The notes beneath the pieces were generated by a model that had not been told where the DNA came from, searched no databases, and saw only the letters and a program-made list of their open reading frames with translations. A DNA stretch of 64,000 nucleotides, taken from positions 23,545 to 87,544 of the forward strand of contig JBAXOD010000002.1 of NCBI GenBank assembly GCA_037133435.1, read 5' to 3'. Positions 12,305 to 49,937 of the stretch are shown here, piece by piece. This DNA comes from Candidatus Moraniibacteriota bacterium. Lineage in GTDB: Bacteria; Patescibacteriota; Minisyncoccia; Moranbacterales; UBA1568. The position numbers were made by a program, and so were the translations under genes. Each line of letters opens with the position of its first letter. Position 1 is the stretch's first letter.

Positions 12305-13234
12305 ATGGCATGGAAACTACCAACATTGGATGCGCTTACTGATGTAGGCAACATCATTTCAAACGTCGCCAACATCACAAAAACAGGCAAGGAGTACATG
12401 GAGAAACTTGCCCAACAGCAACTCGGATTCGAACTCTTCGGAATCGGAGATTTGAGCGATGAGGCCATCGTAGGCGTCGGTCTACGGACAGCAGCCAAAA
12501 AGCTCTACACTCCGGAAGCATCCGCCGACAAGGCGTTCAGTAAGCTCGATGCTTTCCTAAAATCGTTGAATAATCATCAACGCATTCGGCTACGTCGAAC
12601 CATCGCGAAACTCGTTTTGACTGAACGGCATGAAAACGTCGTCGTCGAAACGAAAACCGACAAAGACGGAGCCAAGACTGAAAAACAGGACCGGCGCCAG
12701 GTTGATTATGAATATACCGCGGATGACCCAAGGGTTCAGTTCATAATGAATATGGCAAAAGAACTCATAAAACCTGGTGGACCTGCTGCTGTAAAAGATC
12801 AACTTCTCGCATTCGACGTTATCCTGGAGAAGGCGATTTATGAAACCCTCTTCGATAAGGTAAATGAGGGCAAGAAAAAGGCCAAAGAATGGATAGACGC
12901 TACGGCAATTCCGAAAACGCAGGATTTCCTGAAAGGCATCTTAAACCGTTTGAATAGGGTTACAGATCCCACCGCGACACCGGATGCATTCATCACGGAA
13001 CAGCAGACAATCATAGCTTCCAGGGAAAATGAAATCCTGAGCGAAGCGAGGAATAACTCGTGGATTCATCTGTTGACGACATCCCTACCGGGACGGATTC
13101 TCTTGGGCATGATCGCACTCGTTGCGATACTGGCTCTCGGCACCGGACTCGGCTGGAAGGTTTTCTTCGGAGTGATCGGCCTCGTGCTGGTAGGTAAATA
13201 TGTGATCGGTTGGTACAAACAGCATCATCCATAA
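12305..13234 (+). CDS. Hypothetical protein, coiled-coil N-region with C-terminal TM hairpin
   Basis: 309 aa ORF in lower-GC segment; C-terminal ILLGMIALVAILALGTGLGWKVFFGVIGLVLVG hydrophobic pair; no recognisable motif. Confidence 0.5.
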   Translation: MAWKLPTLDALTDVGNIISNVANITKTGKEYMEKLAQQQLGFELFGIGDLSDEAIVGVGLRTAAKKLYTPEASADKAFSKLDAFLKSLNNHQRIRLRRTIAKLVLTERHENVVVETKTDKDGAKTEKQDRRQVDYEYTADDPRVQFIMNMAKELIKPGGPAAVKDQLLAFDVILEKAIYETLFDKVNEGKKKAKEWIDATAIPKTQDFLKGILNRLNRVTDPTATPDAFITEQQTIIASRENEILSEARNNSWIHLLTTSLPGRILLGMIALVAILALGTGLGWKVFFGVIGLVLVGKYVIGWYKQHHP

Positions 13235-13262: not shown

Positions 13263-14492
13263 ATGCAACAAATCATTGATTTACTCGGTCTCATAGGGAT
13301 CAAGCTGACCCAAGAGATGCGATCCCTGCTTGTAAACGGAGTCACACGGCTCTATCAGACCTTGGTACTGTGGGTCCTGGCAATCATCATGTTGGTGCCC
13401 GTCGCGATTTTCTGCGGAGCAAACGGATGGAATTGGGTGAATCTCACCCTCTTCGTCTTGTTGCTCCCCTGTGTGGGAATCGCGTTCTTCACACCGGCAA
13501 ACGTCGTCTTCATGTTTCTGTTCGGCGGAGCGATGTGCTCGCTTTCCGATGCGAGCCGGCAACGATTTCTCGCCGGAGGCGAAGCCTACGTGAAAGGGAG
13601 CATCCGATTGATAGGCGGCTGCCTATTGGTCCTCGAAACGATCCTTTTCTATCTGGGATTCGTCGACATCAAGGAAAACCCATGGGCGGTCGTAGCGATA
13701 TTGATCGTAGCGATATTCATCACCCTCGATATCAAATTCGGTGGACGGCCCAGCTTCGGCAAAAAGATCCTCTATATTGTCGTCCCGAGTCTCATCGGTA
13801 TCGTCGCAGCGGTAAGTCTCATCAAGCCTGGCACGTGGACCAGTATTGGTTTACCGGCATGGTCCCTTGCGGATCACGGGCAACTTAACGACGTGACCGC
13901 GAGAATCGGGAAACAGATAGAAGAAAACCGGATCGCGGCGAGAAAAAAATCCGCCGACTCGCTCTATGCTGTCGTGGAATCCGGAAAGAGACTCTCTCCT
14001 GCCGGAGTACGACTCTATCACGAACTCATTCGTGAGGGGAAGAAGTACGATATCGTGTCAGCGGCCAAACAGACGAAGGAAAACGTCAGCGGAAACCAGG
14101 AAGTCCGTGAAAGGCTCTTCACGGTCCAACTCGATGGCACCAAGGAGAAGAAAGAGTCCGGTCTTCAGGATGGAGAACACATCTTCGTCATCAAGGATGG
14201 TCCGAACGGTCGTCCGCTCCTTCCCGTCTATACCATGACGAAAGATTTTGAGGGACGCGACGTGCAGATCCTATTCAATTCGTACGAACTCCAAAAGGGT
14301 GGTGAGAATACGATTGTCGCGATGGCGGAAGACGGGAACGAAGTCAGGGACGGCGGAAACATCACCATCCAAGGAGGAACGGTCAAAGTGCGCCTCGTCA
14401 TCGCGCCATGGCTGCAGAAAAAAATCGATTCAAAAAAATATATTCTCGGCGACGTGGTTGCCGTACTGGCATTCCAAAAGTCGAATTATTGA
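13263..14492 (+). CDS. Hypothetical polytopic membrane protein (N-terminal ~6 TM, C-terminal soluble domain)
   Basis: 409 aa; multiple hydrophobic helices in first 200 aa; no recognisable motif. Confidence 0.5.
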   Translation: MQQIIDLLGLIGIKLTQEMRSLLVNGVTRLYQTLVLWVLAIIMLVPVAIFCGANGWNWVNLTLFVLLLPCVGIAFFTPANVVFMFLFGGAMCSLSDASRQRFLAGGEAYVKGSIRLIGGCLLVLETILFYLGFVDIKENPWAVVAILIVAIFITLDIKFGGRPSFGKKILYIVVPSLIGIVAAVSLIKPGTWTSIGLPAWSLADHGQLNDVTARIGKQIEENRIAARKKSADSLYAVVESGKRLSPAGVRLYHELIREGKKYDIVSAAKQTKENVSGNQEVRERLFTVQLDGTKEKKESGLQDGEHIFVIKDGPNGRPLLPVYTMTKDFEGRDVQILFNSYELQKGGENTIVAMAEDGNEVRDGGNITIQGGTVKVRLVIAPWLQKKIDSKKYILGDVVAVLAFQKSNY

Positions 14493-14513: not shown

Positions 14514-14550
14514 AAAGCGGCTCTCATGAACTTGAGGCCGCCTTTTCTTT
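14514..14550. terminator. Bidirectional terminator between convergent genes
   Basis: aaaagcggctctcatgaacttgaggccgcctttt hairpin. Confidence 0.55.
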
Positions 14551-14568: not shown

Positions 14569-15774
14569 TCAGGTCGTCGCGAAGAACGTGGCGATGGTGC
14601 GTACGATAATAAGCGAGACGAGCGCGACCGCCGTACCGATGATGGCGAACTTCACGATGTTCTTGGCGACATCCGTCTTCTTCTCGTCGCCACCGGCCGC
14701 GAAGTACATGAGCCCGCCGACGACGATCATGAGCATCGCCAGGATGCCGACCATGGCAAGGAGGAAGTTCAGCAGATTCGACGCGATCGTCATGAGCGAC
14801 GGGGCCGCGTTGACCTCGGCCGGGATATTGTTCGTGCCGTTGCCCCAATTGAGGATCGCCGCGATCTCCTTGAGGAAAGACGGGGCGGCAATACCGATGG
14901 CAAGACCGATCATCGCGGCCGTGATCATCTTTTTCGCGGTACCGATGTTCTTCTCGTTCCCGGCCGAGAAGATATAGAATATCCCGCCAAGAACCAGGAA
15001 CACGAGCGCGATCGTCACGATGACCCCTTGTGTATAGGCAAGGAACACTCCGAGCACTTCCTGGACGGTGTCGTATTTGAGCGGATTGATGAACTGGATC
15101 GTACTCCCGCCGGCCGTCGAAGATCCGGATGATCCGGTTGGACTCGTTGTACTTGACGAACAACACTTCTGAGTAGCGCTACCACAGTCACCCGCGATTT
15201 CACTGGTTCCACTCGGACATCCTGCACTGATATCGGCACACGTTCCGGACTGCGATGAACAGGTTCCGGTAGTGACCACGGCACCGCTCCCCACGCAGCA
15301 CTTGTTAGTGGTCCCGGAGCAATTTCCGTCCCAGGTCTTTCCAGTCGCACATGTCGCCGTCGCCCCTCCGGCCAGACACGCTCCCGACGCATGAGATGTA
15401 AGCCCAAGACAACCGGTGGTAGCGGTATTTCCACAACAATATGAGCTACCGGTACCGCAATCCGTCGCGCCGGTAAATTCTTCTCCCGGACAGCTTCCGG
15501 CCTGACATGCCCCTCCGAGATTCTGACACGTGATCGCGTCGTTATATGACTGACAGATAACAGTAATTCCGGTTGCCGCCAACTGGGATTTCATCGAATT
15601 ACAGTCGGTATACGTATAATTCTGAAAAGACGTCCCCGAACTGTTCGTATAGATCGAGCCGTTCGAATTCGCCAGACGATACTTGGTCGCCGCATGAACT
15701 GGTACCGTTTGGAAAAGCGCGAAAATCAGGACGATGAGCGATCTAGCGAAAAAACGGAATGATTTCGTTTTCAT
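14569..15774 (-). CDS. Secreted Cys/Gly/Thr-rich protein fused to VirB2/TrbC-like pilin domain (pilin paralog 1)
   Basis: Signal peptide MKTKSFRFFARSLIVLIFALFQTVPVHA; ~40 Cys in C-G-T-S-rich region; C-terminus VLGGIFYIFSAGNEKNIGTAKKMITAAMIGLAIGIAA matches the AGGDExKxxAKKM two-helix motif of the downstream paralogs; start at 15774 Met. Confidence 0.5.
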   Translation of the reverse strand: MKTKSFRFFARSLIVLIFALFQTVPVHAATKYRLANSNGSIYTNSSGTSFQNYTYTDCNSMKSQLAATGITVICQSYNDAITCQNLGGACQAGSCPGEEFTGATDCGTGSSYCCGNTATTGCLGLTSHASGACLAGGATATCATGKTWDGNCSGTTNKCCVGSGAVVTTGTCSSQSGTCADISAGCPSGTSEIAGDCGSATQKCCSSSTTSPTGSSGSSTAGGSTIQFINPLKYDTVQEVLGVFLAYTQGVIVTIALVFLVLGGIFYIFSAGNEKNIGTAKKMITAAMIGLAIGIAAPSFLKEIAAILNWGNGTNNIPAEVNAAPSLMTIASNLLNFLLAMVGILAMLMIVVGGLMYFAAGGDEKKTDVAKNIVKFAIIGTAVALVSLIIVRTIATFFATT

Positions 15775-15784
15775 AGTGTTCGTT

Positions 15785-16240
15785 TCAATATGCAGCCGAA
15801 CCGCCACTTCCCGACCCAGACCCGCCCGAGACGAGCTGCTGCACCGTATACACGATCATATACGCGAGGAGTCCGACCGCCACGCCGGTCGCGGCGTATT
15901 GCATCATGTTCTTCGCGCTTTCGGTCTTCTTCTCGTCGCCGCCTGCGAGCAGGTACTGTATGCCGGCCACCACGAAGAGAAGTATCGCGAGGATGCCGAG
16001 GATGCCCATGAGCCAATAGATGACGGTCGCGATGACCGGACCCGGCTCACGATCGGAAAGACCCGTCGCGGAGGATGTCGGCACGCAGACCCCGCTCATG
16101 AGTACGGTTTTTCCGTCCGAGCAGCTGGCCACCGCCCCGACCAGTTGCGGGGCGAACGTAAGAAGGACCAGAGCGGTCGCGAGTGCCGACTTGAGGAACC
16201 GTGTTGGGACGTTCATAGGAAAAGCAAAACTTTTTTTCAC
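15785..16240 (-). CDS. VirB2/TrbC-like conjugative pilin family protein (paralog 2)
   Basis: Signal peptide, then WLMGILGILAILLFVVAGIQYLLAGGDEKKTESAKNMMQYAATGVAVGLLAY two-helix hydrophobic core with charged loop. Confidence 0.5.
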   Translation of the reverse strand: MKKSFAFPMNVPTRFLKSALATALVLLTFAPQLVGAVASCSDGKTVLMSGVCVPTSSATGLSDREPGPVIATVIYWLMGILGILAILLFVVAGIQYLLAGGDEKKTESAKNMMQYAATGVAVGLLAYMIVYTVQQLVSGGSGSGSGGSAAY

Positions 16241-16327: not shown

Positions 16328-16726
16328 TCAGTACGAGATGCTGTCCGCCGCGTCCGAACCGGTAAGGCTCGCAACCGTATTCACGGCGACATATCCGACG
16401 AGCGCGACGACGATCGCGATGCTCGCGTATACCATCATCTTCTTCGCGCTCTCGGTCTTCGTCTCGTCCCCCGCGGCGATGAGGTACATGACACCCGCTA
16501 TCACGAACGAGATGATGGCGCCGATACCGAGAAGCATCATGAGCCAGTTCATGACGTTGACGAGGATCTGTCCGGCCGAACTTTCCGTCATCCCGGCCGT
16601 GGTGGAAACGGTCTGATACGTGGTACCGGCACTGTCGATGGTCCCGAAACCGAGAGCACCAGTGACCGACGGAACCAAGAGCAGTGCGGCGACCAGGAAT
16701 GCGACCGACCGTTTGGATATCTTCAT
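16328..16726 (-). CDS. VirB2/TrbC-like conjugative pilin family protein (paralog 3)
   Basis: Start MKISKRSVAFLVAALLLVP with GGAGG SD 7 nt upstream; NWLMMLLGIGAIISFVIAGVMYLIAAGDETKTESAKKMMVYASIAIVVALVGY. Confidence 0.55.
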   Translation of the reverse strand: MKISKRSVAFLVAALLLVPSVTGALGFGTIDSAGTTYQTVSTTAGMTESSAGQILVNVMNWLMMLLGIGAIISFVIAGVMYLIAAGDETKTESAKKMMVYASIAIVVALVGYVAVNTVASLTGSDAADSISY

Positions 16727-16849
16727 ATGTTTACCTCCTGTGTTATTTTTTTCCGATGAAACATTCAGTGACACTTCAGATGCTACTCCAATTTTCACAA
16801 AAAAACAACTCCGCCCTGTGGCGGAGCCGTTCTTGTCATCGCGTGACGA

Positions 16850-17260
16850 CTAGTAGCTGATATTGTCCCCAGCGTTCGAACCCGTAAGGTTCGTGATGGT
16901 GTTGACGGCGACATATCCGACGAGTGCCACGACGATCGCGATGATCGCGTAGACCATCATCTTCTTCGCGTTGTCGGTCTTCGCCTCGTCCCCTCCGGCG
17001 ACGAGGTACAGGATACCCGCGATCACGAACGAGATGATGGCGCCGATACCGAGAAGCATCATAAGCCAGTTCATGACGTTGACGAGCATCTGTCCGATGG
17101 AGCTCTTCGTCATTCCGGCGTTCTGAGATACGGTCGTGTACGCCGTACCGCCGGTATCATATTTTCCGAATCCCGAGGTCGGTACGGCCGCGAACACGGC
17201 GACCGGTGCGACCAACGCGGCGACGATCGAGAACATGAGTATCTGTTTCAAAAATTTCAT
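16850..17260 (-). CDS. VirB2/TrbC-like conjugative pilin family protein (paralog 4)
   Basis: Signal peptide MKFLKQILMFSIVAALVAPVAVFA, GGAGG SD; core nearly identical to paralog 3 (NWLMMLLGIGAIISFVIAGILYLVAGGDEAKTDNAKKMMVYAIIAIVVALVGY). Confidence 0.55.
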   Translation of the reverse strand: MKFLKQILMFSIVAALVAPVAVFAAVPTSGFGKYDTGGTAYTTVSQNAGMTKSSIGQMLVNVMNWLMMLLGIGAIISFVIAGILYLVAGGDEAKTDNAKKMMVYAIIAIVVALVGYVAVNTITNLTGSNAGDNISY

Positions 17261-17310: not shown

Positions 17311-17583
17311 TTATACCATAGCCGCCAGCTGTCGGATAGCGATCAGCATCAGGAGGACGACCGAGAGACCGAGGATGGAATAGCCGAGCATCCGTTTCGC
17401 CGATTTCGATTGCTCCTCGTCACCGCCGGCCATCATATACATCACACCGGCCGCGATCAGCGCGACAAGCGCGACGAGACCGAAGAGCGACAACACGAGT
17501 TCGAGGGCACGCATACCGACGAGCTGAAGCGGCGGGGCATCATCTATCACGCCGGACGCTTTCGCTACGGGGATAAGGTTCAT
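17311..17583 (-). CDS. Short VirB2/TrbC-like pilin family protein (paralog 5)
   Basis: 90 aa; LVALVALIAAGVMYMMAGGDEEQSKSAKRMLGYSILGLSVVLLMLIAI retains the AGGDE..K.AK+M motif. Confidence 0.4.
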   Translation of the reverse strand: MNLIPVAKASGVIDDAPPLQLVGMRALELVLSLFGLVALVALIAAGVMYMMAGGDEEQSKSAKRMLGYSILGLSVVLLMLIAIRQLAAMV

Positions 17584-18986
17584 AACGATGCTCCGCCCCG
17601 CACGAGGAGTGAAATCTGATTCGCCGCCGCGCCGAGAGCCTGCTGAGTCGTCTTCTCACCGCGGTACACGGATTCGATCACGTCGGCCAGGGCGCCTTCC
17701 GCCTGATCGACCTCGCCGACCCGCCACGTCCTGGCGATGAGGTTCCCGTACGCGAACGGTGCGAGCCACGCATCGTTCTTTTCCTCTTCCAACAGATCGC
17801 GACGGGCCGCCGGTTGCCCGGTCGCCTGGAGATACGCCTTGGCCGGATCGGTCTTGATATCGGCATTGACGGAATACTGCGTATCGAGATAATTGCGGAG
17901 CGTGATCTTCTGCTCCGGATGCGGAAGCGTGAGAAACCGCAGGAACTGCCAGGATTCGTGCACGCGCAGATCGTTATACCGATCCACCGGAAAGGTCGTG
18001 GACTTGCCCGCGACGACCGGGGCGTTCCGATTCTTCGCGACCACGAGCACCCAATAGTTCGCGACATTCGAGGGAGCGAGTCCGGTGAACTGCGGAAGCG
18101 GCGCGACGCCGAAGTTGAGTTTCGCGTTCTTATTCCTGATGGTACTGAGATTCCATGAATAATTGATCATCATCGCGAGCTTGCCCTCGTAGAACGTGTC
18201 GATGGAATAATGCTGATCCGCGTTCCAGGAATAATACGGCGAGCTCGTCCTGGCGAACTGCGCATAAAAATCCGTGGCTCGCGCCATCTCGGCGCTCGAG
18301 AACGCGAGGTTGTCGTAGAAACCGTCCCGGGTACTCTTCAGCCCCTGTTGCATGGCGATCGCCAACAGCACGTCGGTCGAACGGTTGATATTCTTGGCCG
18401 TCCCCAGCGAAACCGCCGACTCCGTGATATTTCCGTACGCGTCGACCGCACTCAACAACCGGACGTCCTTCAGGAATTCTTCCCAGGTCGCGGGCGGCGC
18501 GGAGATTCCGGCGGCATTGAGGAGATCTTTGTTGTAATAGAGCGCGAGCGAATCCATGGCAAGCGGCATACAGTACACCTTGCCGTCGATGACGCAGTCG
18601 TTGATCGCGGCATCCGCGAACGTATCCCGGAACTCCTTCTCGGTCACCATGGAATCCGGTGCCGGTTCGATCAGGTTCTTGACGAGCGGAAGCCACGCAT
18701 TGCGAACCAGAAACACGTCCGGCCCGTTCCCCTCGGCGAATGCCGCAAGAAGGTCCCGCCGATAGTTCTCCTCCACTTTCTTCTTGTATTCGATGCGCCC
18801 GATATGCGTCTGATTCAATCTTTCATAAGGCGCGATGGCGTCCTTGTACGCCTGGGCATCGTCGAAAATCCCCCACATCTCGAGATCGATCTGATAGGCC
18901 GGCGGCACCACCTTCGAGCACCCGGAGAGGGAGACGGCGGCCAGCAATACGGATATGAAAACGGCTCCTTTTTGTATCTTTCGCAT
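17580..18986 (-). CDS. ABC transporter substrate-binding lipoprotein (family 1 solute-binding, sugar-type)
   Basis: Start at MRKIQKGAVFISVLLAAVSLSGC (lipobox) not the 623-aa ORF-track extension; periplasmic-binding-protein-like sequence. Confidence 0.65.
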   Translation of the reverse strand: MRKIQKGAVFISVLLAAVSLSGCSKVVPPAYQIDLEMWGIFDDAQAYKDAIAPYERLNQTHIGRIEYKKKVEENYRRDLLAAFAEGNGPDVFLVRNAWLPLVKNLIEPAPDSMVTEKEFRDTFADAAINDCVIDGKVYCMPLAMDSLALYYNKDLLNAAGISAPPATWEEFLKDVRLLSAVDAYGNITESAVSLGTAKNINRSTDVLLAIAMQQGLKSTRDGFYDNLAFSSAEMARATDFYAQFARTSSPYYSWNADQHYSIDTFYEGKLAMMINYSWNLSTIRNKNAKLNFGVAPLPQFTGLAPSNVANYWVLVVAKNRNAPVVAGKSTTFPVDRYNDLRVHESWQFLRFLTLPHPEQKITLRNYLDTQYSVNADIKTDPAKAYLQATGQPAARRDLLEEEKNDAWLAPFAYGNLIARTWRVGEVDQAEGALADVIESVYRGEKTTQQALGAAANQISLLVRGGASL

Positions 18987-18994
18987 AATATTTT

Positions 18995-19648
18995 CTATTT
19001 TGTCACGAGAAACGCGTAATGATACGCCCCGACCGGGATATCGCGGATTTCCGTAAAGCCGATCTTTTCCAAAATCTGTTTCATATCCCCCGCGGAAATC
19101 CGTTTCCCCGTTTCCGGTCCGACCTTCCCCTCCGTTTCCGGATTCCATTCCATGATCAGTCCGTGTCCGCCGGGATGAAGCACCCGCGAGACCTCTCGCA
19201 AGATCACATCCTTCATATCGTTCTGAAAGAGCATGTCCTTGACGATGACCCAATCCACGCTCGCCGGAGCAAGCCCCGAACCGTTCTCCCGTTCCAGGTT
19301 GGCCCGCTTCGTCGTGATATTCCTGAGACCCAAGAGCTTGGCCTGACTCTCCATCGCCTCGAGCGCGGCCGGCAGGACGTCGAGCGCGATAACCTGCCCT
19401 TCTTCGCCGACCGCTCTCGAAAATTCCACGGAAAAATATCCTGCGCCGCACCCGAAATCGGCCACGGTCCCTTTCGGTGCGACCGGTAACGCCGCCACGA
19501 CAGCCTTCGGATCCACGAATGTCGGAGAAGAGAACATACTCGTTTCTATATCGGTATTATATTTGCCTGATTCCAATAAATATAGTACAACAATTGAAGG
19601 CGAAAAGAAAGAAGTTCCGGAAAGCTTCTGGAGCCGTTCGAGCTTCAT
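18995..19648 (-). CDS. Class I SAM-dependent methyltransferase
   Basis: Motif I VADFGCGAGYFS, motif post-I ALDV, 217 aa. Confidence 0.65.
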   Translation of the reverse strand: MKLERLQKLSGTSFFSPSIVVLYLLESGKYNTDIETSMFSSPTFVDPKAVVAALPVAPKGTVADFGCGAGYFSVEFSRAVGEEGQVIALDVLPAALEAMESQAKLLGLRNITTKRANLERENGSGLAPASVDWVIVKDMLFQNDMKDVILREVSRVLHPGGHGLIMEWNPETEGKVGPETGKRISAGDMKQILEKIGFTEIRDIPVGAYHYAFLVTK

Positions 19649-20833: not shown

Positions 20834-21030
20834 TGTGTTGTGTTAATGGATGGATTCGAAATTGCAGGCATCTCAGGAAATCCGGCATTTCATTTGTCGC
20901 ATAGCGTCTGTCTTTCCACCGAAATGGATTGCGTGTCAAAGGTACGGATGATACAGTAAGGATGTTTTCGGATAATTCGGAAGATACCGAACAGTACCAT
21001 TCGAAGAATCAGACAGCCAAACGCTCTCAT

Positions 21031-22593
21031 ATGAGGATATCTTTGGAAAGTATTTTCTATCGCGTCATCCTTCCTTTCATGTTTCTTGAGGGATTTCTCC
21101 TGAGAATCGGCAATCTCAGAAAAGGTTTCTGGATCGACGAGTATCTCACCATCGAAACCGCACAGAAACTGACGTTTTTCAATCATACTGACACGGTCGG
21201 TCTCAACCCTTATTACGTCGGCCTCCGTCTGGTCGCATACCTCTTCGGTACCGACGAGACCGCCGTACGGATCATTTCCGTCCTGTTCGGTCTTGCGTCG
21301 GCATTCATCCTTTTCCTGATCGGAAAAAAATATTTTCACGAACGCGTCGGGCTCATCTCATCCTGTATCTTTCTGCTTACTCCCTTAGGCATATCGCTCG
21401 GTCAGGAAGTACGGCCATATTCCATGCTCCTTTTCCTTTCCCTGTGCCAACTATTTTTCTTTCTGGAAATATTGCAGTCCGTCTCCGAAGGTAAGCGGGT
21501 GAAAAATATCCGATTCATGCACCTCTCCGTCCTTACCCTGCTGATCCTGTTCATCCACCTGTCATCGGTATTATTCCTCGTCTCCGAAATGATCGTCCTT
21601 TCGTTCATAACGATCATCGAAAAACGGTGGCCGACGGACGTCTTCAAATATTATCTCGCTTGTTTGTTCCCGATGTTCGCGTTCTTCGCCTGGTTCTATC
21701 GTGACATCCTTACAAAACTCGGATTTATCGTTTCGGACCGGAATTACATTACCGTCTATTCAAACAGCGGACGCTCTTTCGCCGATGTGATCGTTTTCAT
21801 CCAGAATATCTCAACGGGACTCATCCCGGAGAAGCCAAAGGAGAGCCTGCTGGTATTCCTCCTTGCGCTCATTCTGATCGGAGCATCCATCGGCATTTGC
21901 CATTCTTTCATACGACGCGCCACGATCGTAAACGCCCTCTTTGGAATAACGATTCTCCGGATCTGCATCGGGCTGTCGATGCATGACTTCATTCCGAGAC
22001 ACGCGTTCATATTGACCCCTCTTTTTTCACTCTTTCTCGGAATATCCCTCTACAACCTTTCAAAAGTTCGCAGGGTTCCAAAGGTGGTCATTTTTTGCGT
22101 GTACGGATTCTTCATTCTGTCCCTCGCATATCTTTCACTGATTTCGCAGAAAGCCGAGAAAGCCGATCCGGGGAGACAATGGGGGTCGGTCGCCGATTTC
22201 GTCGAACGAAACGCCGGACCGGAAAAAGCGGTCATCGTGGCAGTCCCCTATCTGAAAGGGATATTCACCCATTATTATCATGGAACGACTCCGATCATCA
22301 CTATGGATGATTACAAGGAAAAATCACGAAATACCCTCATAGAGAACAATGAAATCGGTGTCTCGTTCATAAATCAAGAGCTGACCGATGCGTTGATCGG
22401 CAAGAGTATCGGGTTTCGAGAAATTCTGGTCGTCAAAGACGTTATCGCCTTAGATTTGAGCGATGTGGACAAACGCTTCGATACGGCTTTAGCAAGTCGT
22501 TTCATCCGGATCGATACAACCTGTTTCCCGGCTTCAGCGAAAATCCTGTGCGTCGAACGCTATCGAAGAGCCGACCAAGAGCCTATCCGTTAG
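21031..22593 (+). CDS. GT-C fold membrane glycosyltransferase (ArnT/PMT-like)
   Basis: ~12 TM, GFWIDE in first loop, N-terminal hydrophobic domain followed by C-terminal soluble domain; start at MRISLES. Confidence 0.5.
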   Translation: MRISLESIFYRVILPFMFLEGFLLRIGNLRKGFWIDEYLTIETAQKLTFFNHTDTVGLNPYYVGLRLVAYLFGTDETAVRIISVLFGLASAFILFLIGKKYFHERVGLISSCIFLLTPLGISLGQEVRPYSMLLFLSLCQLFFFLEILQSVSEGKRVKNIRFMHLSVLTLLILFIHLSSVLFLVSEMIVLSFITIIEKRWPTDVFKYYLACLFPMFAFFAWFYRDILTKLGFIVSDRNYITVYSNSGRSFADVIVFIQNISTGLIPEKPKESLLVFLLALILIGASIGICHSFIRRATIVNALFGITILRICIGLSMHDFIPRHAFILTPLFSLFLGISLYNLSKVRRVPKVVIFCVYGFFILSLAYLSLISQKAEKADPGRQWGSVADFVERNAGPEKAVIVAVPYLKGIFTHYYHGTTPIITMDDYKEKSRNTLIENNEIGVSFINQELTDALIGKSIGFREILVVKDVIALDLSDVDKRFDTALASRFIRIDTTCFPASAKILCVERYRRADQEPIR

Positions 22594-22940: not shown

Positions 22941-24371
22941 ATGTCGAAACGAACACAGACGGTCATCCTCGGCGCCGGTCCGGCGGGATTATCGGCCGCG
23001 TACGAAATGAATGGGAGCGGCAGCGACATAGTCGTACTCGAGGCGGACCGATCGGTCGGAGGCATCAGCAAGACCGTCTCCTTCAAAGAATGCCTTTTCG
23101 ACCTCGGTGGACACCGATTCCATACCGATATTTCCGAAGTTTCACGGCTCTGGGAAAGCCTTCTGGGCGACGACTTCCTGACCCGACCGAGACTTTCCAG
23201 GATCCGCTACCGGGGGAAATTTTTCGATTATCCGCTCACGCCGATGAATGCCGTCTTCGGACTCGGCATGATCGATTCCATCGGTATCCTTTGGAGTTAT
23301 CTGGCCGCCCGCATGTTCCCCTCCAAGGAAGAGAGGACGTTTGAACAATGGGTATCGAACCGTTTCGGGAAACGACTGTTCGAAATTTTTTTCAAGTCCT
23401 ACACGGAAAAGGTCTGGGGAATCCCCTGCGATGAACTCAGTGCCGAATGGGCCGCACAGAGAATCGACGGTCTTTCCTTGTCCGTCGCGATCCGACAAGC
23501 CCTGTTCCCGGAACGAAATGGTAAGGTGAAGACGTTGATCGACGAATTCCGTTACCCGAAACTCGGACCAGGCATGCTCTACGACGAGATGATGCGCCGC
23601 ATACGCGAGCGTGGTGGACAGATCGAGACCGGTACGCGCGTCATAGGATTGCATGCCGACGGGAACAGGATTCGCAACATTCTCACGGAAGACGCGGATG
23701 GGAACGGCGCCGAGTATCCGGCAGACTTCCTCATCTCAAGCATGCCGATCGACGAACTCGTGACTATGATCCGGCCTGTTGCGCCCGAGGCCGTCATCGC
23801 CGCCGCAAACGGACTCCGTTATCGAAGTCTTGTCTCGGTCAGCCTCGTCCTCGATTGCCCGAACCCCTTCCCGGACAATTGGATCTACGTACACACGCCG
23901 GAAGTACGATTGGGCCGCATACAGAACTTCGGCAATTGGAGCCCTTCCATGGTCGAGCCCGTTGGACGGGTCGCCCTCGGATTGGAATACTTCTGCGACG
24001 AAGGGGACGACTTCTGGAATACGGACGATACCGCTCTCATCGCGCTCGGACTCGATGAGATGAGAAAGATCGGCATAGCGGGATATGACGGCTTTATCGA
24101 CGGGTTCGTGACGCGTATACCGAAGGCCTACCCCGTCTATCACGGTGCCTACCGAGAGAACGTCGCCATCTTACGAACGTACCTCGAAGGGTTTCGGAAC
24201 CTGCAGACGATCGGGAGAAACGGGATGTTCCGCTACAACAATATGGATCATTCGGTCCTGACGGGAATCCTGGCGGCCAAGAACATACCCGAAAAAAGAT
24301 TCGATCTTTGGGATGCGAAACGATATTCCGACGTTACTTCGATAACGGCCGACGAGGCGCTGGACATATGA
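22941..24371 (+). CDS. UDP-galactopyranose mutase (Glf)-family FAD-dependent enzyme
   Basis: VILGAGPAGLSAAYE Rossmann GxGxxG; GGHRFHTD, FEIFFKSYTEKVWGIPCDELSAEW and GRNGMFRYNNMD blocks align with Glf GPHIFHTD / YEAFFKGYTIKQWG / GRLGTYRYLDMD. Confidence 0.6.
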   Translation: MSKRTQTVILGAGPAGLSAAYEMNGSGSDIVVLEADRSVGGISKTVSFKECLFDLGGHRFHTDISEVSRLWESLLGDDFLTRPRLSRIRYRGKFFDYPLTPMNAVFGLGMIDSIGILWSYLAARMFPSKEERTFEQWVSNRFGKRLFEIFFKSYTEKVWGIPCDELSAEWAAQRIDGLSLSVAIRQALFPERNGKVKTLIDEFRYPKLGPGMLYDEMMRRIRERGGQIETGTRVIGLHADGNRIRNILTEDADGNGAEYPADFLISSMPIDELVTMIRPVAPEAVIAAANGLRYRSLVSVSLVLDCPNPFPDNWIYVHTPEVRLGRIQNFGNWSPSMVEPVGRVALGLEYFCDEGDDFWNTDDTALIALGLDEMRKIGIAGYDGFIDGFVTRIPKAYPVYHGAYRENVAILRTYLEGFRNLQTIGRNGMFRYNNMDHSVLTGILAAKNIPEKRFDLWDAKRYSDVTSITADEALDI

Positions 24372-26650
24372 AACACCGTTTCGGAAAAATTCCGACGACA
24401 CCGCGAGAAAGGATCTTCTCGTACCTGTTCCTGGTATGGATGGTCTTTTTCTTCGTCTTGCATACTGCGAACACGTGGCAACTCACCGAGAACAGCTTCA
24501 TCCCGGCGTACCTGATCGCTTTGGCGCTTTCTTCCCTTTTGGGACTAGTCATTCTCATCGCCTACCGGCTCTTCATCGTCTTACACGGAAATAGCGACGT
24601 ATCGATAGGAATCCCTGCCCTTTCCATAGCGATCATAGTCATCGTCATGACCGTCTTCAACATCGACCGGATCGTCTCCATGGACCCGACCGGACTCAGC
24701 GCCATTCCCGGTTTCGCCCTCGACTTCCTGAAATCGGTCTCGGTCGTCACATTGTTTCTCCTCTCCGCGTATCTTGTCGGCGATGCGCTCCTGGAATATT
24801 TCATGCCCCGCGTGTTCGGCAAAGGGGAAGGCGGTCCGATATCCGTCGCGATCGGAGTCGGAGTCTCCGGGTACTTTATCCTCCTCATCGATTTGTTCGG
24901 CATCGCCTACCCCTTGACCGTCTTCTTGTCCGCGATCGCTATCATTACCCTGTTCCGGAAGCGAGCAAAAGAACTCCTCAATTCCTTCATGACCAAGAAG
25001 TTGATCATCAAACCGGGATTACGGACCGAGAACGTCATAGCCGTTATCCTTATCATGCTGACGTTTCTCTCCTTTTTCCTGTCATACGCCGGCCTCGCCG
25101 TCGGAGGATGGGATACGTTCCATCAATATCTCGTCTTCCCGGAAACATACGCGAAATATCATACGCTCGTACCGTTCCCCTTCCATCCCCATTGGGGATT
25201 CCCCCAGCTGTCGGAAATGATATTCGAGGAAGGACTCCTCCTCGGCGACACACGGACGCCGTTTCTCCTCAACTTCGCGTTCATCACGCTCGGCTTCATC
25301 GGCTTTGCCGTAACCGCGAAAAAAATCGCCGGAAAATCCTTCGTATGGCCGCTCGCCGCATTCGCGTCGGTTCCCCTTCTGCTCCGGTTCTGGTCCGGAT
25401 ACCTGAAAGTCGAATCGATCCTCTTCCTGTTCGTCGCGGCGCTCTTCATGCTCCTTTGGAAGATCGCAAGACGGAAGGAGTCCAGCGACGGAAAATTCGG
25501 CCCGTGGGTACTCGTCGCCATCATGCTCGGACTGATGCTGTCCGTAAAATACACATCCTTCTTCATCGGTGCGGCATTGGCTGCCTCGCTTATTCTCTTC
25601 CACCGATCCTTCGACTTCGATTGGAAAAAGGCAGTCCTTGTCGCGGGCATCTCGATGATTTTCCTCTCCCCGTGGCTCATAAAAGACCAGCTCTATTATG
25701 GAAACCCACTCTACCCCGCGCTCCAGGGAAATGATCCTGTTTCGGAAAAGCTGGGAACAAACTGTCAGGCTTCTTTTATACAGATCTGTAACGAGGACAA
25801 TTTTGTGAACCGTCGCCCGGAAATGTTTCAAAAAGATTCCGTTCATCTTTCAAGTGCCTTCCTCACGACGCGACCGTTCATAATGGGAGACGGTTCTGAT
25901 ATCACTTCGACCGGACCGTTCTTCATGCTCTTCCTACCGCTTTTATGGTGGCTTCTTTTCCGAACCAAAGATCCATTTCTCCGCTTCCTCATATCATTCT
26001 CGGCGATATTCCTCGCGCTTGGCGTCTATTTCTTCACCGGACAGACCTGGTATCTTCTGCCGATGATGTTCCCTTTCATGCTCGCGCTCGCCTACGCGTG
26101 GAAAGAGTCGGAAGGAACCATCATCAATGCCATGAGCCGTTCCCTCATATTCCTGTGGATTTTCTTCCTTCTCACGGTCAACATATTCAGTTCAGGAACC
26201 GTGGAACTGGCCAAATATGCCAGAAGCGGATCAGGTCTCGGATACGCGCTGCAGGAAATCGGGAAAATATGTGGCGACCAGAGACGCCGCGACGCATATC
26301 TGGCATGGCAGGATGTGAATGATCTCATCTCCAAGCGCGACGGTGAAAGCACAGTCGTCTACGGGTTCATGGACCCTCAGGGATATTTCATCAAGGACTC
26401 TTTCCGTCATTTCATTCCGGACTTCTTCGGATACCTCTATACCTGCATATCGAAAAACGGCGACATCGGAGACGGGCTGAAGAAACTCGGTGTGACGCAC
26501 GTCCTGTTCGATGCGGCCGCACCGTCCGGCTGTCTTCAAAACGACGTGTTCCTCACCTGTCGCGCCTACTTCGGTTTCCGGGATTTCATCTCGACGCACG
26601 GCACACTTGTGAAAAAGGAGGGGTCGTTCGAACTGTATTCGATAGAATAG
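24368..26650 (+). CDS. Large polytopic membrane protein, putative GT-C-type glycosyl (galactofuranosyl/arabinosyl) transferase
   Basis: 760 aa, >14 TM, ATGA overlap with glf-like gene; assignment by context only. Confidence 0.35.
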   Translation: MKHRFGKIPTTPRERIFSYLFLVWMVFFFVLHTANTWQLTENSFIPAYLIALALSSLLGLVILIAYRLFIVLHGNSDVSIGIPALSIAIIVIVMTVFNIDRIVSMDPTGLSAIPGFALDFLKSVSVVTLFLLSAYLVGDALLEYFMPRVFGKGEGGPISVAIGVGVSGYFILLIDLFGIAYPLTVFLSAIAIITLFRKRAKELLNSFMTKKLIIKPGLRTENVIAVILIMLTFLSFFLSYAGLAVGGWDTFHQYLVFPETYAKYHTLVPFPFHPHWGFPQLSEMIFEEGLLLGDTRTPFLLNFAFITLGFIGFAVTAKKIAGKSFVWPLAAFASVPLLLRFWSGYLKVESILFLFVAALFMLLWKIARRKESSDGKFGPWVLVAIMLGLMLSVKYTSFFIGAALAASLILFHRSFDFDWKKAVLVAGISMIFLSPWLIKDQLYYGNPLYPALQGNDPVSEKLGTNCQASFIQICNEDNFVNRRPEMFQKDSVHLSSAFLTTRPFIMGDGSDITSTGPFFMLFLPLLWWLLFRTKDPFLRFLISFSAIFLALGVYFFTGQTWYLLPMMFPFMLALAYAWKESEGTIINAMSRSLIFLWIFFLLTVNIFSSGTVELAKYARSGSGLGYALQEIGKICGDQRRRDAYLAWQDVNDLISKRDGESTVVYGFMDPQGYFIKDSFRHFIPDFFGYLYTCISKNGDIGDGLKKLGVTHVLFDAAAPSGCLQNDVFLTCRAYFGFRDFISTHGTLVKKEGSFELYSIE

Positions 26651-35714: not shown

Positions 35715-38312
35715 CTATCGCCTATACGCCGACCTCCGATCATCAGGCTCGGAAGCGGGAATCAGGGAAGAAACGAAACCGACCGAGAACAGGAGGAATG
35801 CCGAGGTCAGGATCATCCTGACGGCGAAGACGACGAACGGGGGCACGTATTTCGACACCGCTGCGAAAAATCGGTTCGATCCGGACGAGGCGACGGTCAG
35901 ATCCTCGTTCGCTATCGCTTGAACACGTACGTCACTTACGACCTTCGTTTCCGAGGAATCGATGACGTTGACTCCCCACAGATCTCGGAGTGCCACACGT
36001 TTCTCGTTCGCTTGGACGATTTTCCCCGTAAAGTTGACGAAGTTCGCGTCACCGATCGTGCCGGGTTTCGGAAGCGTATACGCTATCTGCATATCCGCGG
36101 ACTCGTCCACTGTTTTGCCGTCCACCGTCCAGACATGCGACAGCAGATACTTCTTCGCGTATCCCGGAATGATCGACGCCTTCATCGGTATGACGGTGCC
36201 GCTCGCGAACCGTTCGAAAATTTCGTCACTATGCTCGTCGTTCTTGGTACCGTCAAGTTCCGTAAACGTGCCGACGTATCGCGGCCAGACGGCACTCGTG
36301 TCGTTCGATTCGAGCAGGATTTCCGGATCGACGACCTGATAGTTCCGCGAAAGGGACAACGCCTTTCCCGTCGCTACATTCACCGCTTCCATCCGTACGG
36401 TGTACGTTTCTCCCGGCTCGCCCGTTACCGCGAAAAACGCGGTGTTCCCGAGCCCTCCCGAAGGACAGTCGACGGACGAGACGGTCGAGGAACAGTTCAG
36501 TGCGGCACCGTTTATGGTCCATCTGAAATTCTTCCACTCGGTAGAAGTCGCGTTGCGGAGCGTGACCCCGAGAATCTCGTTTTTCATGACGCGACACGAG
36601 ATACGGTTCAGGTTCTCCTTCGCTTCGGCCGCGGTGGAAGGCGTCGGATAGTACATGTCACAGATCGGATCAATCGAGGTGTCAAGCGCCACCTGTGCCG
36701 CGCCGGATGTGGACGCGGTCGCGGTGGTCGTATACGTGGAGATCTTCTTGTCCGTATTGGTGACTTTCACGACCACGTCGCTTTTCCCTTCGGGTCGGGC
36801 GATCATGTTCTGCGCAACCGTACTGCCGCCCGACGCCGTCGCGGTATAGGTGGTCGCGGAATAATTCTCTCCCGCCCGGGTCGTGATACGCATGTAGACC
36901 GGATCGGTATTCGCGAACGTACCAAGAATCTCCGGCTTCATATCAAGCAGCACTTTGATGGAAGTCAGGCCGTTCTGCGAGATCGCCTGGGTGGTGGAAT
37001 TCGGGAGCGTGATGAGCTTTCCAGCCGTGAGTAAACCCGCCGCCTCAAGCTGGGCCGTGACGTCCTTCCAGCCGTCGACCGGATTATTGCTCAGCTCGAC
37101 GGTCCACGAATAGGTGATTTCTTCGGGACTTTTGGATGAATTGTCGACCGAAGCCGTAGCAGTGACCATGTCCCCGCCGATTCCTTCCGTCTTGTCGTTC
37201 ACCGGATTATCCGGCGTCGCGGAAACGGAGAGCTCGAGTTTCTTGGAAGAACCGGATTCAGAATCCATCGGATCGACCAGGTTCATCTCGAGACAGTCAT
37301 CGATATCCCCTTTCGTCAGGCTGGTCGTCAAAAACGTGACCGGATACCCGTGTACCGTCTCTATATAGCTCCCAGGATTCTTGATGGGGCACTTCTTGTT
37401 CTTCGAGAATCCCCACTGGACCATCATCGTCGCGTCATCATGCTTCGTCGCGACCATCGACGATCCCTCCACGAGCACCCCGACTTTGTCTCCGGTCTGA
37501 TAGTTCCACTTGAAGGTATCCCGACCCAGGCCGACCGCGTTCGCCTCGTCCTTGTTGCCGTTACCGCTCGTATCCGGATCGTGCGGGTTGGTCCCCCATG
37601 CCTTCTCGTCCGACAGTCCGAATGTTCCGTCCGTTCCGCCGACCTGACTCCCGTTCAATTCCGGGAACAAGTGGACGCATGCCGGCAACTCATAAAAATG
37701 TCCGCTGACCGGATCGTGCATGTAGCACCAATCCTTCTTCGTATCGACGACGAGCTCCCCTCCGAAATGAGCCTTGTATCCGTCGTTATCATCGTCAGTG
37801 TCGTATTTGAATCCGTTACTGTCGGCATTGTCCGTAGCGAGGATTCGCGAAGCGGCGACTTTCCAATCATTGACGGTCACCGACCCGTCGTTGTCCGAAT
37901 CACAGTAACTCGCCTGACCGGAAGAACCGCCGAGTTCGCATCCGTTCCGCTTCAGATACCAGGTGTAATAAAGCTGTGACTCGCTGGCATTGGAAAAATA
38001 GGTCGGGAACGCCTTCGCGCTGAGTTTCTGCCCGTCCTTGGGATCCGAAGGGCTGAACGCAATCGTCACCTCGGGCGCGTTGCCCTTGTTTTCGGACACG
38101 TTGAACGACTCCCCGTATCTGCGTATGACCGCGGGGTCGAGATGATACCGCTGTTCAATGGCCGACGCTATCGAATCGGCACTCGGGAAATCCAAAGCGA
38201 CCACCTTTTCGGAAATGATGAAACCGGACAAGAAAATCACGAAAGCGACGGGAATCATTCGTCTTCCCGATTGTTTCCTCATTGGATGCATAGCGTTGAA
38301 TTTATTTTTCAT
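35715..38312 (-). CDS. Large secreted/surface protein (865 aa), Thr/Ser/Asp/Asn-rich, N-terminal signal-anchor
   Basis: Start MKNKFNAMHPMRKQSGRRMIPVAFVIFLSGFII; no catalytic motifs; composition of adhesin-like proteins. Confidence 0.5.
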   Translation of the reverse strand: MKNKFNAMHPMRKQSGRRMIPVAFVIFLSGFIISEKVVALDFPSADSIASAIEQRYHLDPAVIRRYGESFNVSENKGNAPEVTIAFSPSDPKDGQKLSAKAFPTYFSNASESQLYYTWYLKRNGCELGGSSGQASYCDSDNDGSVTVNDWKVAASRILATDNADSNGFKYDTDDDNDGYKAHFGGELVVDTKKDWCYMHDPVSGHFYELPACVHLFPELNGSQVGGTDGTFGLSDEKAWGTNPHDPDTSGNGNKDEANAVGLGRDTFKWNYQTGDKVGVLVEGSSMVATKHDDATMMVQWGFSKNKKCPIKNPGSYIETVHGYPVTFLTTSLTKGDIDDCLEMNLVDPMDSESGSSKKLELSVSATPDNPVNDKTEGIGGDMVTATASVDNSSKSPEEITYSWTVELSNNPVDGWKDVTAQLEAAGLLTAGKLITLPNSTTQAISQNGLTSIKVLLDMKPEILGTFANTDPVYMRITTRAGENYSATTYTATASGGSTVAQNMIARPEGKSDVVVKVTNTDKKISTYTTTATASTSGAAQVALDTSIDPICDMYYPTPSTAAEAKENLNRISCRVMKNEILGVTLRNATSTEWKNFRWTINGAALNCSSTVSSVDCPSGGLGNTAFFAVTGEPGETYTVRMEAVNVATGKALSLSRNYQVVDPEILLESNDTSAVWPRYVGTFTELDGTKNDEHSDEIFERFASGTVIPMKASIIPGYAKKYLLSHVWTVDGKTVDESADMQIAYTLPKPGTIGDANFVNFTGKIVQANEKRVALRDLWGVNVIDSSETKVVSDVRVQAIANEDLTVASSGSNRFFAAVSKYVPPFVVFAVRMILTSAFLLFSVGFVSSLIPASEPDDRRSAYRR

Positions 38313-38356
38313 CGTCCGTATGATAATGATTCCGATGGCACGTGAAACTGAAGACG

Positions 38357-39022
38357 TCACCTGCCAAAAACGAGAAACGCCACGTCGGCAAGAAACAGCG
38401 TCAGCCAGCCGGAAAACCAGGAATAATAGATCGAGCGGGTACGATGCGCGACGAACCCGGACGCGAATGCCGCAAGAATCATCGGCGTGCTGTTCCAACC
38501 GATACCGCCGAATGCCGCCAAAAACGCGACGAAAATTCCTCCTTGCAGAAAAACCGCGAGGATGCCGGTCTTGGACAACCACGAAAGCATGATGAGGCCG
38601 CGGAAAAACACCTCAAAGAGAACGGAGACGATACCGACCAGTACCACCTCATACAAAACGAAATAGAGGAACGAATCCTGAATGAAGTTTGGCAGCGAAT
38701 ACGTCACATCGGTCCCTCCGATAGCAATCACCGAGTACCAGACGACGAGAAACGGGATGACCGCGACCACGGCGGTCAGAAAACCGTATTTTTTCACGCT
38801 CCCCTGAAAACCGATCGATGAAAGCGGCTCTTTCTCAACGAAAATCACGTAGAGGATAGGGAGACACAGGAGAAAGACGATCCCCAACACGCCGGCCTGC
38901 AGGGATTCGTCCATATTCGCGTCGGCCGGAAACAAGCGAAATGCGAGAAGCGTCGCCACGACAAACAGTCCCGTCGAGAGGAACCGCTTCATATCGAAAG
39001 CCAGAATAGGAGTCTCACTCAT
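38357..39022 (-). CDS. CPBP family intramembrane metalloprotease (CAAX protease-like)
   Basis: EVFFRGLI motif (EExxxR), multiple TM, TATAAT 12 nt upstream of chosen start MSETPIL. Confidence 0.65.
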   Translation of the reverse strand: MSETPILAFDMKRFLSTGLFVVATLLAFRLFPADANMDESLQAGVLGIVFLLCLPILYVIFVEKEPLSSIGFQGSVKKYGFLTAVVAVIPFLVVWYSVIAIGGTDVTYSLPNFIQDSFLYFVLYEVVLVGIVSVLFEVFFRGLIMLSWLSKTGILAVFLQGGIFVAFLAAFGGIGWNSTPMILAAFASGFVAHRTRSIYYSWFSGWLTLFLADVAFLVFGR

Positions 39023-39076
39023 AGCATTGCTTCCATTATAACGTTTTTTTTCAATCTTGAAAATTTCTGACAAAAT

Positions 39077-40147: not shown

Positions 40148-40229
40148 AGGTACTGACTACGTATCACGAATCATTATGAGAGAGACCGAAAGGAGCGATA
40201 GAATCAAAAAGACGACCTCCCGTGACGGA

Positions 40230-40385
40230 AGACCGTCTTTACGCAGGTTCAGGGTTGTACCCTGAACCACGGGGTTTACAACCGATACCGAAGCTCTGAT
40301 ATGGAGAACCGACCTCCGGTAAGGTTCTGACACAGGGAGAGAAACATTTCGGAGCAGGGTACAACATTGCTCCAGTAAAGAATCG
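40230..40385 (+). repeat. Hairpin repeat family copy b: cgcaggttcagggttgtaccctgaaccac and ggagcagggtacaacattgctcc
   Basis: Matches 12071-12093 (inverted) and 49647-49673 / 49821-49843. Confidence 0.6.
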
Positions 40386-40432
40386 AGCTCTCATCCGCCA
40401 AACTGGAACGAAATATAAATTGGGAAATGGGA

Positions 40433-42769: not shown

Positions 42770-42773
42770 ATGT

Positions 42774-43460: not shown

Positions 43461-43490
43461 AGTTTTCCGTGGTTGTGTGTTTTTCCTCCG

Positions 43491-43889: not shown

Positions 43890-43946
43890 AGCACGGATTC
43901 GGAGATTATCACATTCAAAAACTTCGACTCACTCAAGGATACCATA

Positions 43947-45812: not shown

Positions 45813-45926
45813 ATTTGCGTTCCAATCTTTTCAACCTTTTTAGAAATAATTCGAACCATCTCCCCTTATGGGACCCTGCCCGCCGGAATTTTTTTCTCCG
45901 CCCAAGTTTCCACCTGTATTCCCATC

Positions 45927-48404: not shown

Positions 48405-48701
48405 ATCCTGAAGTCGAAATATTTGAAACCGGGCGCAACAATACGCGACATGATTATACTATAATTTTTGGAAAGAGAGAAACAGCAATAAGCAAGAGAA
48501 CATCTCACAAGTACGCCACAAGAGGACTGTCAATATTGAAACAAAAATTGAACCAGACTCTAAATTGTAGATATTGGAAATCTTTCCAACAAAACTAAAA
48601 TTATTGACCATGATAAGCAAAGCAACTTAAAAATAATGCGAATAAACAAAAAAAGAGAGGCCAATTGGTCTCTCTTGGAATTGATACCGTTGTCACAATA
48701 C

Positions 48702-49860: not shown

Positions 49861-49937
49861 TGATACGCGATAGCGTAGCAAATGTAACTTTTCGAAAATA
49901 TCTCAAATTTGATAATACTGCTACAGGTTGCCAATCC

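Follow-up and report, generated by a model that had tools for sequence, protein, structure and literature searches.

A doubled VirB2-like pilin with a modular, beta-defensin-like head encoded in a Moraniibacteriota genome

Arrays of 2-11 VirB2-like pilin genes, detectable with the Pfam family PF18895, have been described in Patescibacteria, and such a pilin array is essential in Ca. Southlakia epibionticum (PMC12102498 and work cited therein). In the defensin field, the trans-defensins, i.e. the alpha, beta, big and theta types, have been placed only in vertebrates and some invertebrates (PMC11561630). Here we describe a gene of Candidatus Moraniibacteriota bacterium (GenBank assembly GCA_037133435.1, contig JBAXOD010000002.1) that touches on both subjects. 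It lies on the minus strand at 14569-15774 of a stretch of 64,000 nucleotides (nt; contig positions 23,545 to 87,544), which was analysed as a whole and is referred to as the window. The gene encodes a 401-amino-acid (aa) precursor in which a signal peptide is followed by a cysteine-rich ectodomain with three beta-defensin-like 6-Cys modules and by two tandem pilin domains of the type IV secretion system (T4SS) pilin family. We consider it rather probable that the product is a variable adhesin head that is displayed on the cell surface or on a pilus by a doubled VirB2-like pilin.

With the VirB2-like arrays of Patescibacteria (PF18895/PF04956; PMC12102498), the locus shares the Pfam family, the tandem arrangement of divergent paralogues, the background of a genome from the candidate phyla radiation (CPR), the presence of MPF-FATA-like VirB4, PrgI and VirB6 genes in the same genome, and the build of each pilin, in which a signal peptide precedes a hydrophobic hairpin whose loop is short and charged. 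It differs from these arrays in that two pilin domains are fused to each other and to a putatively disulfide-rich ectodomain of ~200 aa, neither of which appears in PMC12102498, and in that a gene for a solute-binding protein (SBP) heads the array and virB4 lies ~23 kb off. In Bartonella and Anaplasma, host range or escape from immunity has been suggested as the purpose of variation among VirB2 paralogues (PMC12102498), but no domain is added to the pilins in these cases. The recently described Pam pili of CPR bacteria were considered as a related system and set aside, as they are Ig-like, assemble by donor-strand exchange and hence are unrelated.

In case of the vertebrate beta-defensins (PF00711, PF13841), the likeness lies in the framework C-x6-C-x4-C-x9/10-C-x6-CC, in the placement of Gly and Pro near C2, C3 and C4, and in the predicted fold, and the avian double-domain defensin AvBD11 (PDB 6qeu) also shows the tandem repetition. 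Unlike these, the modules described here are bacterial, reside inside a membrane protein of 401 aa, are anionic or neutral, score individually below the Pfam cut-off in the query, and have a disulfide pairing that is presumed from superposition. The tick carboxypeptidase inhibitor (PF10468; PDB 1zlh, 2k2z) likewise consists of two tandem beta-defensin-fold domains, which serve a non-antimicrobial protein binding, but it is eukaryotic and soluble and acts via its C-terminal tail. The bacterial cis-defensins xanthusin, actifensin and actinomycesin (PMC11561630) are also Cys-stabilised mini-proteins encoded by bacteria, but they are free antimicrobial peptides with a cysteine-stabilised alpha-beta fold, whereas our modules match, among the defensin families, trans-defensin types only. 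The literature searched had nothing relevant on defensins in Patescibacteria, CPR bacteria or pilins, the only defensins that it reports from bacteria are cis-defensins, and as far as it shows, the beta-defensin-type fold class is new to bacteria. New is also a member of a VirB2-like array that combines a doubled core with a beta-defensin-like modular head.

All 20 cysteines of the precursor are located in aa 58-205, and the remaining 253 residues contain none. A preliminary description of the sequence had given about 40 cysteines and a domain of ~250 aa, both of which are too high, the mature ectodomain comprising ~200 aa (aa 29-228). It had rightly seen that the cysteine-rich part precedes a pilin-type core, that it is rich in Gly, Thr and Ser (34 T, 33 G and 31 S among 230 residues), and that it contains the motifs CGNTATTGC (C114-C122), CVGSGAVVTTGTC (C160-C172) and CSSQSGTC (C172-C179). 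When the six frames of the window were searched by regular expression for a 6-Cys pattern ending in CC, three matches were obtained, all of them in this gene. A tandem-repeat search found no repeats at the DNA level across the modules, and the triplication is therefore old.

What kind of fold would such modules adopt? The framework of beta-defensins is C-x(4-8)-C-x(3-5)-C-x(9-13)-C-x(4-7)-CC. Module 1 (spacing 6-4-10-6) fits this framework. In module 3 (6-6-10-6), the second gap is too long by one residue, and in module 2 (10-8-9-6), the first two gaps exceed the limits. A profile built from 97 modules of the homologue family was searched against all PDB sequences and gave 29 matches (E 3.7e-5 to 0.38), all of which are beta-defensins (avian AvBD11, human beta-defensins (hBD) 1, 2 and 3, mouse BD7 and BD8, bovine BNBD-12) or the tick carboxypeptidase inhibitor. 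In Pfam scans with single modules, PF00711 was matched by 18 of the 97 (best E 7.4e-5) and PF13841 by nine (best E 1e-5), minor matches being mostly to other trans-defensin families. The defensin-family Pfam matches are all of trans-defensin types (PF00711, PF13841, PF00323, PF14862, PF10468, PF08131), and cis-defensins are absent from both these and the PDB matches. Two orthologous modules from homologues even pass the PF00711 cut-off (23.0 and 23.1 versus 21 bits), and hhalign aligned the modules with six beta-defensins at a probability of 80.6% (E 1.3e-5).

The four lines of evidence for this likeness agree, but all of them lean on the Cys framework. In a shuffle control, the non-Cys residues were permuted within each aligned row (100 shuffles), upon which the scores to hBD1-3, BNBD-12 and AvBD11 dropped from 17-23 bits to means of 1-7, with none of the 100 shuffles reaching the real score, and ~12-17 bits per target can thus be ascribed to non-Cys positions. 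The AlphaFold2 model of a module (predicted local distance difference test score, pLDDT, 90.7) shows a short helix and a three-stranded sheet, in agreement with the beta-defensin fold, which has a three-stranded antiparallel sheet and often a short N-terminal helix. Every Foldseek match of this model is a beta-defensin-fold protein, again including the tick carboxypeptidase inhibitor, and nine beta-defensins among these matches superpose at 1.5-2.0 A. In a ranked structural comparison, the first place was taken by hBD-2 (4.5), followed by a crocodile beta-defensin (4.2), avian AvBD3 (3.8), a sea-anemone peptide (3.4), human beta-defensin 106 (3.4), AvBD11 (3.3), luciferase (3.3) and hBD-3 (2.7), absolute scores that are modest, which is inevitable at 40 residues. 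The superposition on the beta-defensin Foldseek matches suggests the disulfide pairing C1-C5/C2-C4/C3-C6. The defensin-like fold that had been put forward for checking in the preliminary description thus recurs in profile matches as well as in the predicted structure. Going by profile and model, we call the modules beta-defensin-like and keep them out of the beta-defensin family, because individually they stay under the Pfam cut-off and are not small cationic peptides.

The membrane core matches PF18895 (T4SS_pilin) in two stretches that jointly reach 53.3 bits (gathering cut-off 26.6), the better one covering aa 327-394. A single-sequence AlphaFold2 model predicts four long helices for this core, and the features of the family, a signal peptide and a hydrophobic helix hairpin with a short charged loop, are present, the hairpin twice and with Lys-rich loops. 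Domain 2 is 33-47% identical to the four single-domain paralogues encoded upstream, and domain 1 is divergent (22-28%). The VirB2-like scaffold of the preliminary description therefore holds in so far as a PF18895 core is fused to a secreted cysteine-rich domain, but this core is doubled and not single. To our knowledge, a VirB2-like pilin that is covalently doubled has not been described before. By its sequence, the product belongs to PF18895; a PDB search with a profile of 30 pilin domains returned no pilin at E up to 10, and thus no link to the solved conjugative pilins VirB2, TraA and TrbC. PF04956 matches are weak (E 0.015 in a 90-aa paralogue, and precomputed matches in four homologues). 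The tandem duplication of the core (14572-15090) is kept across the whole homologue family.

This family comprises 126 homologues found by full-length search, the named ones stemming almost all from metagenome-assembled genomes of Candidatus Moranbacteria/Moraniibacteriota, and a scan of species-representative genomes found it in Moraniibacteriota only. Eight homologues cover 93-99% of the protein, including the Cys-rich part, and the fused architecture, which is indeed as unusual as had been stated, recurs in over 100 homologues, which stem from assemblies of NCBI, JGI, ENA and Logan (102 contigs carry P0024 alone); for the exact 401-aa protein, the assembly index holds no record. The regular expression detected 157 copies of the 6-Cys module, distributed over 89 of 121 homologues at 0-5 copies per protein (six by eye in P0069), so that the pattern is not due to chance. 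In the 97 aligned modules, the six Cys are the sole invariant columns, while Gly is preferred ahead of C2, Pro behind C3 and the motif G-x-C at C4, in a composition rich in Gly, Thr, Ser and Ala. Distant homologues bear other Cys frameworks at the same position. The N-terminal 2-Cys module is also found in P0004, P0007, P0012 and P0121, and as tandem duplicate in P0005, P0006 and P0024.

NCBI lists the full-length homologue P0012 as 'pilin [Candidatus Fimivivens sp.]', a genus that its taxonomy assigns to the Oscillospiraceae. This is probably due to a mis-binned contig, because its core is 58% identical to the double pilin of the window and the other named homologues are nearly all from Moranbacteria. 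A search with the ectodomain alone in a word index of 5.8 billion proteins gave no match, most likely owing to low complexity and the word filter, since the full-length search recovered homologous ectodomains; a full HMMER search of 1.84 billion representatives with the ectodomain gave no more than three matches. One of these, P0122, was rejected as an ectodomain homologue, as it looks like an unrelated repeat protein. The module profile had no match in the word-index database.

Relative to the 40 best homologues, the pilin core has 56-90% identity, and the ectodomain aligns partially at 29-49%. At the closest relative (GCA_013336285.1, locus L007), the flanking DNA is collinear with 72-81% identity, and the ectodomain segment 15120-15767 (648 nt) has no detectable counterpart in the 207 nt that L007 has there, its protein carrying one module in place of the 2-Cys module and the three 6-Cys modules. 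The same ectodomain is found on P0121, a single-domain PF18895 pilin, and the 2-Cys module shares 48% of 50 aa with the N-terminal part (aa 57-106) of P0123 from another organism, a protein that matches TrbL/VirB6 weakly (E 0.002) and the 825-aa VirB6-like protein of the window over 676 aa (29% identity, E 8e-62). As modules are shared with P0121 and the VirB6-like P0123, they are shuffled among extracellular parts of T4SS-like components.

How could such a protein function? After cleavage of the signal peptide, the two tandem T4SS_pilin hairpins, i.e. four transmembrane helices, would anchor the protein in the membrane, with the short Lys-rich loops on the cytoplasmic side and the N-terminus of ~200 aa outside the cell. 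In VirB2 and TraA, the inter-helix loop is cytoplasmic while the pilin resides in the membrane and is turned to the lumen once it is part of the pilus, and the termini point outward, so that an N-terminal extension would be displayed on the surface of the cell or of a filament; in case of a VirB2- or TraA-like polymerisation of the protein, its N-terminus would lie on the outer face of the filament. The 6-Cys modules would form protease-resistant, beta-defensin-like knobs with three disulfides each, and their variable loops may bind structures of host or partner cells, thereby lending specificity to the T4SS-like apparatus encoded 23-33 kb away. Because only the Cys and a few turn residues are conserved, because loops, copy number and cassettes vary, and because the modules are non-cationic, we infer rapidly evolving binding heads, and the adhesin-pilin that the preliminary description had offered remains the best functional reading. 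Type 1 pili have a two-domain adhesin-pilin of this kind in FimH, in which a head for binding is likewise joined to a pilin module that polymerises, but FimH differs in its Ig-like domains and chaperone-usher assembly. The T4SS assembly genes (VirB4, PrgI, VirB6-like) and a LysM-CHAP hydrolase gene are found in the same window as the pilin operon, in a repertoire that agrees with the monoderm-type T4SS described for Patescibacteria (PMC12102498).

Several points weigh against this adhesin reading. The query's own modules reach 12.9, 13.6 and 11.5 bits on PF00711 and thus stay under the cut-off of 21, and AlphaFold2 has been trained on beta-defensin structures, so that matching Cys spacing may bias the model. 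Oxidation of the 20 Cys is assumed, many CPR bacteria are anaerobes, a CxxC scan together with Pfam scans found no Dsb, thioredoxin or VKOR candidate in the window, and the literature searched gave nothing useful on how CPR bacteria form disulfides. Moreover, the pilin operon is not located beside virB4, with ~23 kb between them. Finally, a homopolymeric shaft may be sterically precluded if every second pilin domain bears a head of 20 kDa. On these steric grounds, a minor or terminal subunit is more plausible than the alternatives of a shaft subunit or a membrane-anchored surface protein, and nothing among our results supports the earlier placement of the protein at the pilus tip.

The possibility of an adhesin deserves attention, as CPR/Patescibacteria depend on other cells and the way in which they recognise their partners is largely unknown. 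A swappable, disulfide-stabilised and hypervariable pilin head would be a concrete candidate for a specificity determinant. With more than 150 bacterial modules of this framework and predicted fold, either the fold would be extended to bacteria or a striking convergence would have taken place, and the module family would constitute a natural library of non-cationic beta-defensin scaffolds.

Which other readings have to be weighed? The ectodomain could be a generic disulfide-rich spacer or coat, forming a rigid, possibly glycosylated stalk or a protective layer at the surface, on a non-polymerising four-helix anchor, in which case the likeness to defensins would be convergent or a modelling artefact caused by the Cys spacing. 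We regard this as unlikely, albeit as an option to be taken seriously, since it would accommodate the invariance of nothing but the six Cys, the Gly/Thr/Ser/Ala-rich composition, the sub-threshold Pfam scores of the query modules and the modest structural scores, as well as the other Cys frameworks in distant members, the missing sequence link to solved VirB2/TraA structures and two nearby glycosyltransferase genes of the PMT_2 type. It does not explain the bits contributed by non-Cys positions in the shuffle control, nor the fact that all PDB sequence and Foldseek matches have the beta-defensin fold and none comes from other 6-Cys families. In addition, hypervariable loops and cassette replacement are less in keeping with an inert spacer than with a surface for recognition, and the PF18895 match of the anchor is well over the cut-off.

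That the modules are true homologues of the animal beta- and big defensins, and that bacteria thus possess the trans-defensin fold, with CPR pili or secretion systems using it as a building block outside the cell, is doubtful in our opinion. If it were so, either the fold would be of bacterial origin with a transfer into animals, or it would have been transferred from animals to CPR bacteria, and the pilin heads would be host-recognition determinants of Moranbacteria.

The framework, the profile similarity and the predicted fold of the modules could also suggest an anchored or releasable defensin-type weapon that attacks membranes or lipid II of hosts or competitors, either via the pilus or after proteolysis, and the G-x-C before C4 in 75 of the 157 modules resembles the gamma-core motif of disulfide-stabilised antimicrobial peptides. 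The charges speak against such a weapon, which we consider quite improbable: the modules 1-3 have net charges of -3, +1 and -2, and the 157 family modules have a mean of -1.17, with 88% at or below zero and 1% reaching +3, as compared to +4, +6 and +11 in hBD1, hBD2 and hBD3. The definition of a small, cationic, secreted antimicrobial peptide does not apply to non-cationic modules that are internal to a 401-aa membrane protein. Neither standalone module genes nor obvious processing sites were found, by searches that were weak for this purpose, and beta-defensin-fold proteins that are not antimicrobial do exist, such as the tick carboxypeptidase inhibitor among our matches. We thus do not think that the modules are membrane-active antimicrobial peptides, and the anchored toxin or bacteriocin of the preliminary description receives no support.

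Dense Cys in a group of often anaerobic bacteria, with no Dsb or VKOR gene seen in the window, might alternatively serve to coordinate an extracellular metal such as Zn or Fe and not form disulfides, but this is very improbable, as His/Asp partners and the CxxC pairs that are characteristic of metal sites are missing, as exactly six invariant Cys per module with a CC end agree with a three-disulfide framework, and as the fold that AlphaFold2 predicts with confidence can be superposed on defensins with disulfide bonds. A merger of a secreted Cys-rich gene with a pilin gene by frameshift or misassembly, against which the preliminary description had cautioned, has a negligible chance, given the uninterrupted open reading frame (ORF), the same fusion in many independent assemblies with 93-99% coverage, and the flanks collinear with L007.

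The features of the gene and its surroundings are compiled in Table 1. On the minus strand, the operon runs from a methyltransferase gene via the solute-binding lipoprotein gene and the four single-domain PF18895 pilin genes (28.3-48.7 bits) to the gene under study, which begins 10 nt after the stop codon of the preceding pilin. A GTG-extended form would reach 15807 and overlap the end of this upstream gene.

Table 1. Positions of the gene, its parts, the pilin operon and the T4SS-like cluster in the window
Feature	Position	Strand	Evidence or remarks
Whole gene, 401-aa precursor, last of pilin operon	14569-15774	minus	continuous ORF, ATG start; stop codon 14569-14571
Predicted signal peptide, aa 1-28 (MKTKSFRFFARSLIVLIFALFQTVPVHA/A)	15691-15774	minus	basic n-region, hydrophobic h-region, VHA/A motif by eye
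N-terminal 2-Cys module, aa 29-80 (C58, C74)	15535-15690	minus	
Beta-defensin-like module 1, aa 83-114	15433-15528	minus	C-x6-C-x4-C-x10-C-x6-CC
Beta-defensin-like module 2, aa 122-160	15295-15411	minus	C-x10-C-x8-C-x9-C-x6-CC; PF00711 E 0.069
Beta-defensin-like module 3, aa 172-205	15160-15261	minus	C-x6-C-x6-C-x10-C-x6-CC
Ser/Thr/Gly-rich linker, aa 206-228	15091-15159	minus	composition; pLDDT <50 at aa 208-235
T4SS_pilin domain 1, aa 229-316	14827-15090	minus	PF18895, AlphaFold2; helices 237-269 and 274-311, loop SAGNEKNIGTAKK
T4SS_pilin domain 2, aa 317-401	14572-14826	minus	PF18895, AlphaFold2; helices 327-359 and 364-400, loop AGGDEKKTDVAK
Terminator-like hairpin, then UUUUGGUUUG	14514-14545	minus	between convergent genes; folds as RNA with -20.2 kcal/mol (z = -2.0)
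Four single-domain PF18895 pilin paralogues	15785-16240, 16328-16798, 16850-17260, 17311-17583	minus	each above Pfam cut-off
Solute-binding lipoprotein SBP_bac_1	17580-19022	minus	Pfam E 6e-26; LSGC lipobox; overlaps start of first pilin
Large ORFs without Pfam match	35715-38582 (955 aa), 39077-40147, 43947-45812		
VirB4/TraC-like ATPase	40433-42769	minus	PF19044, PF12846, PF11130
PrgI (VirB3-like)	43491-43889	minus	PF12666, 33.2 bits versus cut-off 27
VirB6-like polytopic membrane protein, 825 aa	45927-48404	minus	homology to P0123
Tyrosine recombinase	50194-51177		
LysM-CHAP hydrolase	51285-52823		

In the AlphaFold2 model, aa 4-23 within the signal peptide form a helix. The gene is the last of an SBP and pilin array beside nusA also in loci L001-L003 and L007 and in that of P0003; the order beside nusA, the trigger factor gene and clpP is kept in the loci of P0024, P0003 and P0001, and the order of SBP_bac_1 and pilins is repeated in L001, L003 and the P0003 locus. 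In all of the related loci that were examined, the SBP_bac_1 gene stands at the head of the pilin array. No similar gene was found by tblastn in plasmid and phage collections, and the gene is therefore not part of a known mobile element. The hairpin downstream of it, which a simple terminator scan missed, could by its sequence act in both directions.

The T4SS-like cluster occupies the region 35715-52823, in which the GC content falls to 0.44-0.48 at 46-50 kb. Between the pilin operon and nusA, two membrane-protein genes without Pfam match (12305-13234 and 13263-14492, plus strand) are convergent to the operon. Relatives have two genes of like size in this slot, the pair of L007 (1563-3725) being without detectable protein similarity to that of the window; the flanks of the L007 slot are 72-81% identical, and the GC content of the slot in the window is lower (0.486). 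The gene pair was considered as an insertion, which was rejected because the slot is occupied in relatives too, and judged from these sequences it looks like a second hypervariable slot. Two PMT_2-type genes, resembling dolichyl-phosphate-mannose protein mannosyltransferases, are located ~5-10 kb from the operon (20929-22593 and 24308-26650, plus strand) and are outside the conserved synteny in L001; their products could O-glycosylate Ser/Thr-rich ectodomains.

Among the single-domain pilins, the 151-aa paralogue possesses a short ectodomain with a C-x12-C loop. Three of the single-domain pilins (15785-16240, 16328-16798 and 16850-17260) as well as the double-pilin homologues P0022 and P0040 carry a Gly/Ser-rich C-terminal tail that ends with Tyr (...GGSAAY, ...ADSISY, ...GDNISY, ...GGTYY, ...GSGSYY), which could be a processing or sorting signal.

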